The position numbers and the translations under genes are program-made. A stretch of DNA of 13,791 bases. Origin: Nanobdellota archaeon (lineage in GTDB: Archaea; Aenigmatarchaeota; Aenigmatarchaeia; QMZP01). Of this stretch, positions 4,474-13,791 are shown in pieces. The notes below the pieces were generated by a model. That model saw only the letters and a list, made by a program, of their open reading frames with translations, searched no databases and was not told the origin of the DNA. Every line of letters begins with the position of its first letter. The first letter of the stretch is position 1. The stretch is from contig JBDRJQ010000017.1 of NCBI GenBank assembly GCA_043814765.1, forward strand, positions 1 through 13,791, in the 5' to 3' direction.

Positions 4474-4662
4474 ATGGCATTCAAAATATCTGTTAATAAA
4501 GAAACATGCATAGGTTGCGGATCATGTGCAGAAGTTTGCAGTAACTTCAAGCTTGTAGACGGCAAGTCAGTTGTAAAAAAAACTCCTGTTAAAGCTGCAG
4601 GATGCAATGTTGAAGCAAAAAACATCTGTCCAACGCACTCTATAAAAGTTGAGAAGGCTTAA
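4474..4662 (+). CDS. Single-cluster [4Fe-4S] ferredoxin
   Basis: CIGCGSC...CP plus two extra Cys, an arrangement like Pyrococcus/Thermotoga monocluster ferredoxins. ATG at 4474 after GTGAT. The stop overlaps the convergent MCM stop by 4 nt. Confidence 0.92.
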   Translation: MAFKISVNKETCIGCGSCAEVCSNFKLVDGKSVVKKTPVKAAGCNVEAKNICPTHSIKVEKA

Positions 4663-7600
4663 ACCTTTTGAACAAAGCCCGGATTGGGTTCAAACAGCAT
4701 TCCTTCTCTTTTTAGTTTCTCTATTATTTCCTCTACGCCCTCCACTTCTTGAGATCTGGCTCTGGAAGTTAAATCACTTAGAGATATCTCTTTCTTCTTT
4801 TCAGACATTTCGTTTATGATATCCATGACTATTTTTATCTTGCCTCTCTCGCTTGAACTTGTGGATGCGCCCTCTGCTCTGTCAATGTCTATCATGCCTG
4901 TTTCAGGATCGAAACCTAGCTGGCGAAGCGAGAATTTCACAAGTTTTATTGCCCGTTCTGCATCACTTTTTCTAACTGTTTCGCTTAATTGTATTTTTGC
5001 AGAAGCCTCTGATAAACGGACTAGAGCTTCAAATTGTCTCAGTGTTATAGGTATTGGTGCAGACCCGCCTTCTGCTTTTTTTCTGGTTTTCAAATAGAAA
5101 GTTTTTAGGATTTTGCCTGCTTCCTTAGTTAAAACAGGACTGCAATTTCCGCGTGCATAGGCAATGTATTTTCTTACGAGCGCTTGCTCTATTTTCGGTA
5201 ATGATTTCGTATAATCAGCTTCCCTTGCATTGAGTATGTGATCAACTATTAATTTATCAGTTGTTGTGTCAGGCAAATCACGGAGAGCAAACTTTAGGTC
5301 AAACCTTGACAGCAAGCTGTCTGGCAATGTTATTTGTTTGGATATAGCCATGTAAGGATCGAATCTGCTGAATTTTGGGTTTCCACCAGCTAGTACAGAT
5401 GTCTTAGCCGGTAATGTTGCAACAATAGAAGCCTTTGCTATGGATATAGTTCCCTGCTCCAGGGCTTCGTGCATCGCTATCATGTCGTCTGGTGACATTT
5501 TTTCAAATTCATCTATGGACAGAACACCTTTGTTTGCAAGAACCAATGCGCCTGCTTCTAAAACCCATCCGCCCATAAATTGTTCATCCTTGGTAACAGT
5601 TGCAGTGTTATGAACTATGAAATTGTTCGCTATGAAATTGTGTTCACCTTCCACAGTAAGATCATAAACCCATTCTTCCTTTATAGTATCTGTACTAACT
5701 ATTTTATCCCAAAATATGTCAGATGCTGCCAGTTTTCCTAAGAAATCAAAATATTCATGTTTCTTTTCTTTCTTTAATAGCGATACAAATCTTAGCAGAC
5801 TTTCGGGAGAGAAATTTCTGTTTCCATATTCATACTGGCGCAGATAATAAAGATCTTCGTTGTTTTTTATACCAATCTTAAGGGATTTTCTAACTTCATT
5901 AAGCCTTTCACCAACACCAGGAATAACATCGATATTTGTGTTTGGTTTTAGGTTCTTAGATAAGATTTTATCAAGTTTTTCCTTTTTGGATCCTGTAAAA
6001 TTTATATGTTCTCTGAACTTTTCCAAGTTATCAGCACCCCTTATTAATATACAATATTTTTTCTTTTTCCCACCAAATCCCTTTTTAGACGGTTCTCTTT
6101 CCCTTATCTTGCTTAACACAGAAAATCTTAAAAGTGCGGTTTGCAATTCAATTGCCATCCTCTTGCTAGTGGTTGTGAATTCTATATAACTTCCATTTCC
6201 CTTTAGAACTACACCGCCATCACAATTGAAAATACCTGAAATGAATTCAGAAAGTAGTTTATTTGATTTTAATATTTCTTCTGGAATTCTTATTTTATCA
6301 CATTTGATTCCCCTAGGTATGCCTACAGAATCAAGTTTATCACAAAGAGATTTTGATGCAACTCTTACGCATGGTATTCTGTTTTTTTGGTAGTATTTTC
6401 TTGGATTAAAGCCTAATTTGTACGAAAGATTAGAAAATTCGTTCAAATAGTATTCGTTTGTGTTATGGAATCTGATCTCTCTTTGGCCCACATCACCGTC
6501 TCCTGCTACCATACCCATAAGTCTTGATGTTTTATTGTCCATAAAGGTAGGTTCATGATTGATAGGTATTTTCTTTGCTGTAGCAATGTAATCTCCTGTT
6601 TTCATTGCGTTAGCTTTCACCCAAGTAAGCTCACCGTTCCTTATAACTAGAACTGGGTTTTCCTTAGTTAGTTTTATTTCTTTACCTGTGCGTGTCTTTA
6701 TCTTAATTAATTTATCTTTTGATTTCAATTTGAAAACTTTAGAAACTTTTCTCTTTTTTATTTTCAAGTCTTTGAAATCTAGCATATTAATTTCTAAATC
6801 ACAATTAGATGATACCCAACCCTCTTTGGTTTTTTCTTTATTTTTCTTTAAGACAGATTCTACAATATCTCCTATATACTTTATTTCTCCGTGAGCTAGA
6901 GGTATAAGGGTGTCATAAGACATGCACAAACCAGCACCAGTTACGCCCTTTCCTGAAACGTATCTAGCGCGCGGAACTATCTCAGGTACGAGCTTAAGCA
7001 GTTGTGAATTATGAACAAATATTTGGTTTGCTATAAAATTATGAACAAACGGAACCTGCAAATCATAAACCCATTTTTCTTTGGATTGTATTTTTTTTAT
7101 TCTTTTTATTCTATCCCAGAAAATATCACTGTTGCTCAGTTTGTGGAGGGATTCTATTTTGGTTTTTAGTTCATTGTCTTTCCTAACCGAAGAACAGGTA
7201 TCAGTAAGGGCATGTTTTATTCTTTTGGTTGTATTCTCCACACTCTTTCTTTTAGGTTTTATTCTGGATTTTCCGCATCTTCCACTCTCATATTGAGATA
7301 ATAAAGTTTGAGAAAAACCAGCTTTTTTGGACAGCGAATCCTGCGAGATTCCAAGCTCATTTCTTATGTTCTTCAATTCTGCTATACTGGCATTCTGCAC
7401 GCGCTTCTCCAGATTATCAAGATATTCTAATCTTTTCTTAAAGATATCTAATATCAATTTCATTGGTTTCCTTGTGGGGTTCCTGTCGCCTCGTTCAAAA
7501 TGCTGATAGGTGCTCCTTGGAACTCCCATACCAAATTGTGTCAGTCTTAACCCTTTTCTGATACCAAACAACGCCTTTGAAAGGTTTGGTACAACATCGG

Positions 7601-9653
7601 TTATTGAATTTTTATCAGTTAATTTGTCCAATTTCTCTTTTTTCCTTGACATGGAAAAATTTATTTTCTCTTTAAACAGTTTTACATCAGAACCTGAAAT
7701 TGCTAATCTATGATATTCCCTTAATTTTGGTTTAGGAGAATTGGTGGCCTTTTTTAGCATACTGTGAATTTGAGAGTTTATCCCAAATCTCAGCAAAAGA
7801 ACCTGTATTTGATCCAAAAGCTCTCTGCTGGCACTAGCCAATTCTATACCTCTATCTTCAACATTTGCTTCGCAGTCAAAGTACACTCGGAGGAAGGATT
7901 TAATTTCGTCATCGCTTGTTCTCATTATAATATCTGGAATCTTCTTGTATCTTGATTTCTTTAATAATGCCGGTTCTAACTGCTTTAAAAAACGCCCCAG
8001 CTCTATAGAAGAGATGTAGTAATCGAAGGCTCTTTTGCCTTTATGAGGTTTCCTCTTATGAACAGGTAAATTGAATATCCTAGCACAATCCTCATATTCT
8101 CTCAGTGATAGAGGATCGTTGTTTGTAAACCATATTAAGCATGTTGAATCGCTTCTCTGCACACACCCTTCTGCTATAAGATAGGCGAGGAATTTGCACA
8201 ATTCCTTGGATGTCTTTTCAGGAATTTTCATATGTTTCGCGTTGTTTGCCTTTGATTTTTCTATTTCCACGTTTATTTCCTGCGTTTTGCCCTTTGTTGG
8301 TATTTTGCTAGGAGATGCTATGAAATCGTTTTTATTCAATTCGCTTGCCTTCTTTGACATTATATAACCATCTGAACAGGTGAAAAACGGGTGGGTTGGT
8401 GTGACAGTGATTTTTTTACCAGAAAAAGTTTCAACACTGTATAGATATTTTGGGCTTTTTCTTTTCCAGAATATGTTAGCCTTAGTTTCCTGTGCTTTTC
8501 CATCAAGTGACATGCTTATTAGATCATCGTTACCGTTAGCATAAAAACCGTCGTCTATTGCTTTTATATTATCTTTTAATTTATTTTCCACAATATTCTT
8601 TATGGGTCTAAGTTCTCCGTTCTTAAGAACCACTTTTGTGTCTCCTGTGACACATTTACCAGAAGCAGGATCTCCTATCAAAAGAATATGTATGTCACCC
8701 CTGATATGCGTGCCATCTTTAAGATGTTGCGGAACTCCGCCAAACAATTGTAGTATTATGGATTCTTTTATCTCTCTCATGCCGTACAATGACGGAGCGA
8801 GTGAATCCACAAGGGTTTCATAAATGCCAGGATCTTTAGCCATTTCTTTTATTCTCTCTTTATCGCTTTCTGATATGTCAATATGATGCCAGCCTATTTC
8901 CAATGGCTCTACATGATTGCCATCTATAAAGAATTCCAGCTTAGTTGAATAGCTTTTTCCTTTTGGCGTCTCTCTTAGTATGCCTGATATTTTGAGTCTG
9001 TTGCCTGGGTCTGTTATTCTTCTCATTTCTGGTGAAACAAGATCATCAATTAGAACGATTGTAACCTGAGAAGGCCTGTCACCCTCTGTCAGTTCAAACG
9101 GTTCCTCGATGGTTATCCATCTCGTGTCAACCATTTTTTTGCCTGTCTGCTTGAAGGCTTTTCTGCTTCTGCAGGTATCATTGGTGCACTGGAATGGCCT
9201 CATTATTATGCTGGCCCTTATGGGCTGAATTATCTCTTCGCCGCACTCTGAGCACTCCCAAAAGCTCTCAGTAATCTCTGGTCTTATCTCAGAAGCACGC
9301 CTTACAGTGCCCTCAACAGATATTAATTTTGATAAGTGCCTTGATCTCAAATTTCTTATAGAAGTTAATTCTGGCAAATTATAGAAACGGACATTAAATG
9401 GATTTGGCAGATCTATGTCCTTTACAGCCTCGTTTATTATCTCAAAAACGTTATCAGGCTCTATTAACAGTAAATCTGCTATCTCTGAATTGTACTTGTG
9501 AAGTGTGCTGTAATCAACGTCCAGAGCCTTGTTCTCCATAGAAGCAGAAGTCATCTCGGTCTCGTAGTTCTCATGCAGAAACTCCTTAATCTTGGCTATG
9601 AATTCTATCCTTTTCTTCTCAGATATTTCGATAGCTAATTTTACAGAAGTCAT
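4659..9653 (-). CDS. mcm: MCM replicative helicase precursor with two inteins (spliced product 675 aa)
   Basis: N-terminal Zn finger (CSEC...CTNDTC), LAPSLYG, QLFGG, RGDIHILLIGDPASGK|S Walker A, LEAGALVLANKG..IDEFEKM Walker B, HEALEQGTISIAKA, LLSRFD Arg finger, ITLRQFEALVRLSEA, C-terminal winged helix. Confidence 0.98.
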   Translation of the reverse strand: MTSVKLAIEISEKKRIEFIAKIKEFLHENYETEMTSASMENKALDVDYSTLHKYNSEIADLLLIEPDNVFEIINEAVKDIDLPNPFNVRFYNLPELTSIRNLRSRHLSKLISVEGTVRRASEIRPEITESFWECSECGEEIIQPIRASIIMRPFQCTNDTCRSRKAFKQTGKKMVDTRWITIEEPFELTEGDRPSQVTIVLIDDLVSPEMRRITDPGNRLKISGILRETPKGKSYSTKLEFFIDGNHVEPLEIGWHHIDISESDKERIKEMAKDPGIYETLVDSLAPSLYGMREIKESIILQLFGGVPQHLKDGTHIRGDIHILLIGDPASGKCVTGDTKVVLKNGELRPIKNIVENKLKDNIKAIDDGFYANGNDDLISMSLDGKAQETKANIFWKRKSPKYLYSVETFSGKKITVTPTHPFFTCSDGYIMSKKASELNKNDFIASPSKIPTKGKTQEINVEIEKSKANNAKHMKIPEKTSKELCKFLAYLIAEGCVQRSDSTCLIWFTNNDPLSLREYEDCARIFNLPVHKRKPHKGKRAFDYYISSIELGRFLKQLEPALLKKSRYKKIPDIIMRTSDDEIKSFLRVYFDCEANVEDRGIELASASRELLDQIQVLLLRFGINSQIHSMLKKATNSPKPKLREYHRLAISGSDVKLFKEKINFSMSRKKEKLDKLTDKNSITDVVPNLSKALFGIRKGLRLTQFGMGVPRSTYQHFERGDRNPTRKPMKLILDIFKKRLEYLDNLEKRVQNASIAELKNIRNELGISQDSLSKKAGFSQTLLSQYESGRCGKSRIKPKRKSVENTTKRIKHALTDTCSSVRKDNELKTKIESLHKLSNSDIFWDRIKRIKKIQSKEKWVYDLQVPFVHNFIANQIFVHNSQLLKLVPEIVPRARYVSGKGVTGAGLCMSYDTLIPLAHGEIKYIGDIVESVLKKNKEKTKEGWVSSNCDLEINMLDFKDLKIKKRKVSKVFKLKSKDKLIKIKTRTGKEIKLTKENPVLVIRNGELTWVKANAMKTGDYIATAKKIPINHEPTFMDNKTSRLMGMVAGDGDVGQREIRFHNTNEYYLNEFSNLSYKLGFNPRKYYQKNRIPCVRVASKSLCDKLDSVGIPRGIKCDKIRIPEEILKSNKLLSEFISGIFNCDGGVVLKGNGSYIEFTTTSKRMAIELQTALLRFSVLSKIREREPSKKGFGGKKKKYCILIRGADNLEKFREHINFTGSKKEKLDKILSKNLKPNTNIDVIPGVGERLNEVRKSLKIGIKNNEDLYYLRQYEYGNRNFSPESLLRFVSLLKKEKKHEYFDFLGKLAASDIFWDKIVSTDTIKEEWVYDLTVEGEHNFIANNFIVHNTATVTKDEQFMGGWVLEAGALVLANKGVLSIDEFEKMSPDDMIAMHEALEQGTISIAKASIVATLPAKTSVLAGGNPKFSRFDPYMAISKQITLPDSLLSRFDLKFALRDLPDTTTDKLIVDHILNAREADYTKSLPKIEQALVRKYIAYARGNCSPVLTKEAGKILKTFYLKTRKKAEGGSAPIPITLRQFEALVRLSEASAKIQLSETVRKSDAERAIKLVKFSLRQLGFDPETGMIDIDRAEGASTSSSERGKIKIVMDIINEMSEKKKEISLSDLTSRARSQEVEGVEEIIEKLKREGMLFEPNPGFVQKV
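5607..6926 (-). mobile_element. Intein 2 in MCM (GAGL|T site), 440 aa, with LAGLIDADG homing endonuclease
   Basis: Starts CMSYDT (aa 910); block B IKLTKENPV; LMGMVAGDG and FISGIFNCDG; ends WVYDLTVEGEHNFIANNFIVHN followed by Thr. Confidence 0.95.
7008..8654 (-). mobile_element. Intein 1 in MCM (Walker A site, GK|S), 549 aa, with LAGLIDADG homing endonuclease and two Xre-HTH inserts
   Basis: Starts CVTGDT (aa 334); block B ITVTPTHPF; LAGLIDADG-like FLAYLIAEG and FLRVYFDCEA; ends WVYDLQVPFVHNFIANQIFVHN followed by Ser. Confidence 0.95.
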
Positions 9654-12492: not shown

Positions 12493-12552
12493 TCATAATA
12501 ACCATATTTAGAGTTACTTATTAAAAAATGTCGTATTTTTAAGGTTCTAGCC

Positions 12553-12976
12553 CTACTCCACAATCTCAACAGTGTTCATAACAACAGGCGTTACTGGCCT
12601 GTCCATTGCATCAGTTTGGGTCTTTCCAATCTTCTCAATTACATCCATGATGGAATTCGTCGTCTATAGTGTATCCTGGTCCGCCCATGCCAGTGCCCTG
12701 CGGATCTCCGCCCTGAATCATGAAATCATCAATAACTCTGTGAAAAATAACACCGTTATAAAATCCATCTTTAACCAGCTTCAAAAAATTTTCTGAAGTA
12801 TTTGGGACCTTGTCTTCAAATATTTCTACCTTGAAATCTCCCATGCTTGTGCTGAACTTTACTATTGAATTTGACATTTTGCTTTCCTCCTTTATGAAAT
12901 TTCCAGTAATGGATACTGAAACAACTGAAACAATGACCATTATTATAATCAGACCCAGCAATTTCTTTTTGGCCAT
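12553..12976 (-). pseudogene. Membrane-anchored cyclophilin-type PPIase with an internal out-of-frame deletion
   Basis: From the ATG at 12976: TM anchor, then [25 protein letters not shown]...[38 protein letters not shown]. After one extra base (12649), a different frame encodes the normal C-terminus [31 protein letters not shown] (12648-12553). The intervening SMANxGP...SQFFI...LD..HTVFG block is absent. Confidence 0.88.
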
Positions 12977-13392
12977 ATTATCAGTTAGCGTATGATTATT
13001 TAAATGTTTATATACCTCTTTTAGTTGACAGATATAACACAAGTCGCTTTTTTTACGTGAGAAGAATTAGAGACTTGTGGCCGCTGCTCAAAAAGAGCAC
13101 GAGTACCAAATTTATGTAAATATGCGGGCTCCTTTTTTCATTGCGCAACCGCATAAGTCTGTTCTCTGCGCAACTTTTGTTACCTTTGCTTTACCAATTA
13201 TTGCGATGGACAGTAGTTTTTATCACATCCTTTTTCCATGGTGTCCTAAGTTCTCCGACCAAAGAACTTTCAGTATGTACAGATGTTCATTCGCACCTCC
13301 TTTATGAATCACAGTTTGCCTTGATATATTGATGAGTCGACTAACTCCCAATTCAATACAGCAACATGATATCAATGTGATGTGTTAAATCA

Positions 13393-13461
13393 GAATGGGC
13401 CCAGCGAACATCACTGGATTGACATAAAATGCCGTACATTCACAGAATGTAAAGCCCATTC
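13393..13461 (-). ncRNA. Candidate 69-nt four-way-junction (tRNA-shaped) structured RNA
   Basis: Minus strand: GAAUGGGC-UU-[UACAUUC UGU GAAUGUA]-C-[GGCAU UUU AUGUC]-AAU-[CCAGUGA UGU UCGCUGG]-GCCCAUUC. The G-U wobbles work only on the minus strand. Confidence 0.5.
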
Positions 13462-13478
13462 ATTTAGTTGTTGGCGGG

Positions 13479-13727
13479 TTATTTGCCGCCGCCTGATGGG
13501 GTAGTTGAGCCGTCTGAATGAACGTCTCTTGAGTCGTGGCTGAAAGCTGAACTTCGCTCAGCCCTCATGGAACCGTTATCGTTTATTCCAGTGACGCTGT
13601 AATCCTGTCCACTGATTGTGACATGATTACCGTCCCAACCACTACTTCTGACTTCCACTCTACCGGAATTATCGGTATTAGCTCTCGGGGAGTCGCTGTC
13701 ACCGCTTATTGGAGTTGAATCTGTCAT
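13479..13727 (-). CDS. Orphan S/G/D-rich small protein (82 aa)
   Basis: Strong SD AGGAGGT (13737-13743) before the ATG. A GC hairpin GGCGG/CCGCC spans the stop. No Leu or Cys. Confidence 0.7.
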   Translation of the reverse strand: MTDSTPISGDSDSPRANTDNSGRVEVRSSGWDGNHVTISGQDYSVTGINDNGSMRAERSSAFSHDSRDVHSDGSTTPSGGGK

Positions 13728-13791
13728 GGTGTTTAACCTCCTTTTTGTCGTGATTATTTATTTGGTTAAACGCCCGTGATGATGTTGCATT

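Follow-up and report, generated by a model that had tools for sequence, protein, structure and literature searches.

Near the end of the window, by which we mean the whole stretch of 13,791 nucleotides that was analysed and which makes up all of contig C17, a short minus-strand element folds into the outline of a transfer RNA just behind a small orphan gene. The original prediction saw in it a tRNA-like element for the processing or stability of an mRNA, or a small RNA. The question raised by this locus is whether the fold serves the adjacent mRNA or some other purpose of the cell, or whether a few palindromes have fallen into this shape by accident. The fold is predicted in a short and an extended form.

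13393 to 13461, minus strand: 69-nt cloverleaf; MFE -28.8 kcal/mol, z -5.38; 27 pairs, the top match of the tRNA-geometry descriptor used below.
13385 to 13466, minus strand: extended cloverleaf of 82 nt, in which five further A-U pairs (UAAAU/AUUUA), set off by a 2-nt bulge, lengthen the closing stem; -30.2 kcal/mol, z -4.68.

On the minus strand, positions 13393-13461 are predicted to fold as ((((((((..(((((((...))))))).(((((...)))))...(((((((...))))))))))))))). The closing stem of 8 bp (GAAUGGGC/GCCCAUUC) is followed by a 2-nt linker, a 17-nt arm (7 bp and the loop UGU), 1 nt, a middle arm of 13 nt (5 bp and UUU), 3 nt and a third arm of 17 nt (7 bp and UGU), from which 0 nt lead to the closing stem, giving direct stacking. 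The element is thus built of three perfect triloop hairpins of 7, 5 and 7 bp with linkers of 2/1/3/0 nt. The 8-bp closing stem, the three hairpins, the linkers and the 13-nt middle arm had all been described in the original prediction and are all present in the sequence. The claim that two G-U pairs fix the strand was also borne out, as the pairs G30-U40 and U49-G57 occur in the minus-strand fold and the plus strand of the same segment folds less stably (-21.7 kcal/mol, z -3.58). The z-score against dinucleotide shuffles, proposed as a check, turned out strongly negative, and none of 200 shuffles folded as well as the cloverleaf. The MFE structure accounts for 42% of the ensemble and is identical to the centroid, and in a 261-nt context the cloverleaf is retained in both the MFE structure and the centroid.

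We then compared the element with tRNA and with known RNA families. Its loops are UGU, UUU and UGU; the D-loop GG and the T-loop, whose lack had been correctly noticed beforehand, are absent together with the 7-nt anticodon loop, and the motif GGTTCRANYCC does not occur in the element. Since all three loops are 3 nt long, a D-loop/T-loop elbow cannot form. The acceptor-plus-T stack would measure 8+7 = 15 bp, versus 12 in tRNA. ARAGORN found no tRNA gene in the 13,791-nt window, and Rfam, searched at E <= 10 over the whole window and over 151 nt, matched nothing at the element, RF00005 included; both empty results had been anticipated. Searching the whole genome with RF00005 (E <= 1; gathering score 29 bits) returned 27 matches, none of which lies on contig C17.

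With the canonical tRNA described by RF00005, the element shares the four-way junction, the 2-nt and 1-nt linkers, the short variable segment, the third arm stacked directly on the closing stem, the 17-nt outer arms and a total length of 69 nt. Topology and linkers are near those of tRNA but not identical, with 2/1/3/0 versus 2/1/4-5/0 nt and a closing stem of 8 versus 7 bp. The element differs further in that its 8-bp closing stem can be extended, all of its loops are 3 nt long, its middle arm has 13 nt, G18G19, the T-loop and U33 with the anticodon loop are lacking, and neither a covariance-model match at E <= 10 nor an ARAGORN call was obtained. The tRNA resemblance of the element is restricted to secondary-structure topology and linker lengths.

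Elsewhere in this genome of 859 kb (39 contigs, 88% complete), 21 RF00005 matches passed the cut-off and ARAGORN reported about 27 tRNAs, with introns that in many cases are long or oddly placed. No tRNAs were called for Lys, Leu, Pro, Gln, Asp and Cys, which may be due to the 88% completeness or to disrupted genes escaping these tools. An identity as the tRNA-Lys that ARAGORN does not call in the genome was tried for the element, whose middle arm could open to the 7-nt loop AUUUUAU with UUU in its centre; it was rejected, as only a 3-bp stem would be left and no other tRNA feature is present. Ribozymes, riboswitches and Y-RNA-like families were rejected for want of an Rfam match.

If the resemblance were functional, the element would be a tRNA mimic that RNase P and/or RNase Z cut at the cloverleaf, making an mRNA 3' end and a tRNA-sized RNA. 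The linkers of 2/1/3/0 nt and the 17-nt outer arms are indeed tRNA-like and are otherwise combined only in true tRNAs of this genome, and the machinery appears to be at hand, with an encoded RNase Z (G000:C27:5951-6832; 314 bits, above the cut-off) and a candidate RNase P RNA (57.8 bits, E 5e-16), although the latter match stays below the Rfam gathering score of 84 bits. This candidate (RNaseP_arch, G000:C29:6798-7150, plus strand) covers the whole model and may be divergent or reduced. As a precedent, an excerpt of PMC1920247 presents acceptor-stem-like stem-loops as proposed RNase Z/RNase P signals in plant mitochondria. However, the D/T elbow that these enzymes bind is the very feature that loops of 3 nt cannot form, and the element matches RF00005 nowhere at E <= 10. 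RNase P-type enzymes measure along the acceptor/T-stem stack, and the cleavage site follows stack length, according to the portion of PMC4919922 that deals with a plant protein-only RNase P; the stack here is 15 bp and not 12. Furthermore, the 5' and 3' flanks of the element pair in context and would bury both cleavage sites. The proposal of a tRNA mimic in the original prediction is therefore not backed and loses ground with the missing T-loop and D-loop, the 15-bp stack and the empty RF00005 and ARAGORN searches, and we regard such cleavage as unlikely.

A sharper version, in which a newborn, lineage-specific, tRNA-shaped 3' element recruits RNase Z and/or RNase P to the orphan mRNA without a T-loop or D-loop, appears quite unlikely to us. 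If true, it would be an archaeal counterpart of the plant mitochondrial t-elements and of mascRNA in which junction geometry alone suffices for recognition. Among archaea with very small genomes, it would be the first tRNA-like processing signal linked to an mRNA, and it would provide a test of whether shape alone is enough to recruit RNase P or RNase Z.

We searched for relatives of the element with R1, a covariance model built from it, and with BLAST. In its own genome (859 kb), neither BLAST nor R1 found a second copy, and a repeated palindromic element of the REP or MITE type was rejected, the sole genome match being the element itself. R1 had no match in 46 genomes of the family, 90 of the order and 150 sampled from the phylum. 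At the syntenic locus of the same-genus genome G001, R1 gave nothing better than E 0.078. In nine related metagenome loci, chosen around relatives of the neighbouring 152-aa gene with at most 68% identity, it gave nothing better than E 0.09, and the matches between E 0.09 and 0.5 were chance-like. A weak opposite-strand R1 match in G001 (12.9 bits), with the same sequence in locus L017, was judged not homologous. Two stem patterns had 0 matches each in viral contigs and in genome contigs, and one stem pattern had 0 matches in metagenome contigs. A blastn search against phages and plasmids returned nothing, and when positions 13300-13791 were compared with 60 relatives by BLAST, a 27-nt chance match (E 0.003) in genome G029 was all that came up. 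The search for homologs in archaeal genomes and viruses proposed with the original prediction thus brought up no relative, so that the element stands as a singleton; no homolog with compensatory changes came from any collection searched. The element is a well-defined predicted fold that is private to one genome.

The immediate surroundings were examined on the strand of the element.

13479 to 13727, minus strand: 82-aa orphan ORF, a listed ORF with its stop codon 17 nt ahead of the cloverleaf.
13737 to 13741, minus strand: GGAGG, a Shine-Dalgarno-like motif 9 nt upstream of the ATG of the 82-aa ORF, read from the sequence.
13473 to 13490, minus strand: 5-bp hairpin GGCGG...CCGCC that encloses the stop codon of the ORF; present in both MFE structure and centroid.
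13043 to 13392, minus strand: 350-nt non-coding stretch between the element and the remnant of a cyclophilin gene, with no terminator-like site and no Rfam family.
12553 to 13042, minus strand: broken cyclophilin gene, matching only positions 2-81 of the 159 of profile PF00160.

The distance of 17 nt had been given correctly, with the TAA at 13479-13481. The ORF has a codon-usage score of 0.369, where in-frame sequence averages 0.378 and off-frame sequence -1.20, and it is probably a real gene. Its protein matched only itself among 5.8 billion proteins and was found in none of the 46 family genomes; no Pfam or PHROG family was assigned and the protein atlas held no usable match. The GC content of the ORF, 49% versus 37% for the genome, hints at a foreign or recent origin. 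About 100 nt downstream of the cloverleaf, a mini-ORF of 6 codons (MNICTY and a stop; 13270-13290) lies behind an AGGAGG, within 13270-13301 on the minus strand, and resembles what is left of a lost gene, or else a tiny leader ORF.

Further along the strand, the cyclophilin gene is split between two frames, one encoding the N-terminal half of the domain and the other its C-terminal tail, and about 145 nt (about 48 aa) are missing between them. It is the sole cyclophilin in this genome, while intact open frames of 193 aa, 180 aa and 196 aa occur in genomes G001, G002 and G012, respectively, with a 191-aa ORF listed in G001 as well. Alternatively, the break could be an assembly artefact. The transglutaminase-like gene (61% amino acid identity) and the 152-aa gene (77% nucleotide identity) of the window are common to G001. 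Synteny is lost shortly upstream of the 152-aa gene, near position 12540, past which G001 has unrelated sequence, its cyclophilin gene being on a different contig; from about 12540 to the contig end at 13791 there is no counterpart in this same-genus genome. The loss of synteny and the broken cyclophilin together place the element in a species-specific, rearranged and partly decaying patch. A family profile search found no transposase or integrase in the window. The window also encodes the N-terminus of a Cdc48, a Cas4-like nuclease and an MCM helicase of 1,664 aa (4659-9653, minus strand) with an archaeal winged-helix domain and two inteins. For a genome of 859 kb, this helicase is elaborate, its sequence including intein splicing domains, an HTH_3 domain and three LAGLIDADG stretches. 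Along with the RNaseP_arch match and the many intron-bearing tRNAs, these genes mark the genome as archaeal, and its size suggests one of the small-genome archaea of DPANN type.

A strongly negative z-score for a chosen segment invites the question of how often such structures arise without selection. RNALfold was run on both strands of the whole genome with a span of 90, and local structures at or below -18 kcal/mol were kept, which gave 11,477 local structures, about 1,180 of them cloverleaf-shaped. By z-score, the 82-nt form of the element (z -4.68, 60 shuffles) ranks 115th among 660 non-redundant dense structures and third among the 33 dense cloverleafs; the local structures stronger than the element are mostly long hairpins. 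Put through the same procedure, block-wise dinucleotide-shuffled sequence (259,882 bp) yielded 24 structures with z <= -4.68, versus 31 in the real sequence of the same contigs. A boundary-optimised z near -5 is therefore expected about once per window of 13.8 kb, and window-optimised stability by itself is at chance level. The lesson for calibration is that a z of -5 obtained for a hand-picked window is equalled by shuffled sequence once the boundaries are optimised.

Within the top 115 structures by z, 74 lie inside ORFs (30 of these antisense) and 41 are intergenic, a mild enrichment over the share of about 14% that is non-coding. By a crude call, the genome is 86% coding, and the element falls in non-coding DNA. 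The most structured local element of the genome (z about -10) is found at G000:C33:10250-10324, between two convergent ORFs, and is a tandem duplication of a GACCCGCTTAGGCGGGTC hairpin with its spacer. At G000:C39:13800-14200, three cloverleaf-shaped local structures cluster on both strands, with z down to -5.0.

The shape of the cloverleaf is rarer by chance than its stability. In 605,243 bp of shuffled sequence, only 1 of 772 cloverleafs had loosely tRNA-like linkers and none had arms of 12-20 nt in addition. Among the approximately 1,180 real cloverleafs, 14 entries had such linkers and 5 also had such arms, and these 5 correspond to three tRNA loci and the element. We further used a tRNA-geometry descriptor (closing stem of at least 7 bp, 2 nt, an arm of 15-18 nt, 1 nt, an arm of 13-17 nt, 3-5 nt, and a 17-nt arm with a 0-nt junction), which has 12 matches in the real genome; the element comes first with 27 pairs, above seven true tRNAs. 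At least 27 pairs were reached in 1 of 46 shuffled genomes and at least 25 pairs four times, under descriptor ranges that had been widened after the element was seen, so as to admit it.

Moreover, the genome is richer in inverted repeats than its shuffled versions. Palindromes of 7 bp with a 3-nt centre number 131, versus 86 ± 11 in shuffles (about 1.5-fold), and those of 8 bp 47 versus 24. Perfect inverted repeats are 1.5 to 3 times commoner than in shuffles at any loop size, and perfect-armed cloverleaf cores of at least 26 bp occur 12 times per 859 kb of real sequence versus 3 times per 605 kb of shuffled sequence. Because real DNA is richer in inverted repeats than the shuffles, the chance rate is at least 0.02 per genome, and in view of the post-hoc descriptor ranges and the palindrome excess we put this rate at roughly 0.02-0.1 per genome. 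This makes the element unusual for a single genome, yet such cases are bound to appear when very many windows are scanned. The excess of inverted repeats also makes a non-selective source of palindromes plausible.

In a second functional explanation, the element, as part of a 3' untranslated region, would act as a passive barrier to 3'-to-5' exonucleases, possibly defining the 3' end and stabilising the mRNA of the 82-aa ORF. 3' stem-loops stabilise upstream mRNAs in bacteria and organelles; they are usually single hairpins and are often repeated in the genome. The position of the element on the coding strand, 17 nt past the stop of an ORF that is coding-like by codon usage, would suit this role, as would a fold that is strand-specific, well defined and robust in context, and the mild intergenic enrichment of high-z structures (41 of 115) points the same way. 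Against it, there was no conservation anywhere searched and no second copy, and the genome has no general class of 3' hairpins, since only 13 of the 150 top structures start between -10 and +60 nt of a same-strand stop and these have no common form. A plain hairpin would suffice for such a barrier, which leaves the cloverleaf shape unexplained. No U-tract or terminator-like site follows the element: the tail is UGAUUUAAC, and a search for a G+C-rich hairpin with a T-run found 0 sites in 12900-13791, by which an intrinsic terminator was rejected. We hold a protective 3' structure to be possible but doubtful.

The element might also be a gene in its own right, with a separate promoter, for a small non-coding RNA of about 70-80 nt. 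Its compact, stable fold and an A/T-rich AAATAA about 18-23 nt upstream of 13461 would be compatible with this, but the TATA-like word lies nearer than the usual position of about -26, and such words are common at 37% GC. The fold has no single-stranded region long enough for target pairing, no homolog was found, and no Rfam family covers it; the best matches, with E > 1, are to C/D-box models and lie on the opposite strand. An archaeal C/D-box sRNA was considered specifically, and these plus-strand matches are sub-threshold (E 1.8 and 7.8); on the minus strand, inspection by eye shows a C-like GUGAUGU and a single CUGA, but a proper C'/D pair is lacking. From the sequence, a separate RNA gene appears very unlikely.

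A further explanation leaves RNA aside and treats the segment as a DNA-level element, whose palindromes would either be bound by a regulator or a recombinase or form an extruded cruciform or single-strand fold. Each arm is a near-perfect palindrome around a 3-nt centre, the 69 nt contain four occurrences of GAATG/CATTC versus 0.15 expected, and DNA parameters predict the same cloverleaf (-14.7 kcal/mol, z -4.80). However, CATTC-N3-GAATG is found once in the whole genome, at the element, with about 1 expected, so the recurrence of a regulon is lacking; the idea of an operator was rejected on the ground that the palindrome does not recur in the genome. There is no transposase, integrase or second copy, and on one strand the two G-U pairs would be mismatches in DNA. 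The probability that we assign to a DNA-level role is very slight indeed.

The reading that we favour, tentatively and at roughly even odds with a working RNA element, is that the element is a private and probably neutral fold without dedicated function. An 8-bp inverted repeat and, within it, three short palindromes, nearly perfect and with centres of 3 nt, would have nested into a cloverleaf by accident, and their origin may have been neutral, for example through inverted repeats formed locally while the DNA was replicated. In a transcript of the 82-aa gene, should there be one, the element would lie in the 3' untranslated region and could fold there as a four-way junction. This reading fits a singleton with triloops in a decaying context, whose stability is at chance level in a genome with an excess of palindromes. 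Triloops are typical of DNA palindromes with minimal spacers and not of selected RNA hairpins.

Several observations run counter to a neutral origin. Only true tRNAs otherwise have the linker-plus-arm geometry of the element in this genome, and tRNA-like geometry with at least 27 pairs appeared in only 1 of 46 shuffled genomes. The two G-U pairs speak for the strand on which the adjacent gene lies, the site is non-coding and lies 17 nt past a coding-like ORF, and the MFE structure holds 42% of the ensemble. Weighing both sides, we consider that the element is probably not a selected feature. A cloverleaf without relatives or transcript data is indistinguishable from a by-product of young, palindrome-rich DNA.

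Three groups of known systems help to place the element among related structures. The first comprises tRNA-like processing signals. The t-elements of plant mitochondria came to light by way of the motif GGTTCRANYCC, and an excerpt of PMC1920247 calls their pseudouridine arm "perfectly conserved". MALAT1 mascRNA and MEN-beta menRNA are treated as tRNA-like processing signals in a section of the review PMC4919922, and a tRNA-like structure upstream of the 5S rRNA of Haloferax volcanii is cited in part of PMC5627344, as is Hölzle 2008 on the tRNase Z of this species. Like these, the element is cloverleaf-shaped and non-decoding, in a genome that encodes the enzymes, and with its place 17 nt past a stop codon it might adjoin the end of an mRNA or RNA. 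The known signals have a recognisable T arm or T loop and experimentally shown cleavage, whereas the element has no T loop, a triloop-capped 15-bp stack and no conservation.

The second group is that of the bacterial and organellar 3' stem-loop stabilisers, with which the element shares a stable structure a few nucleotides past a stop codon on the coding strand. It differs from them as a single-copy four-way junction in an archaeon.

The third comparison is with hairpins that arise by template switching in replication, a known process according to the part of PMC8794818 that describes it. The four nested or adjacent helices of the element would require several such events or added coincidence, and no outgroup sequence is available here. 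With the hairpins described in that part of PMC8794818, the element shares perfect short inverted repeats, minimal spacers and a location in young, unconstrained DNA, in a genome where such repeats are in excess.
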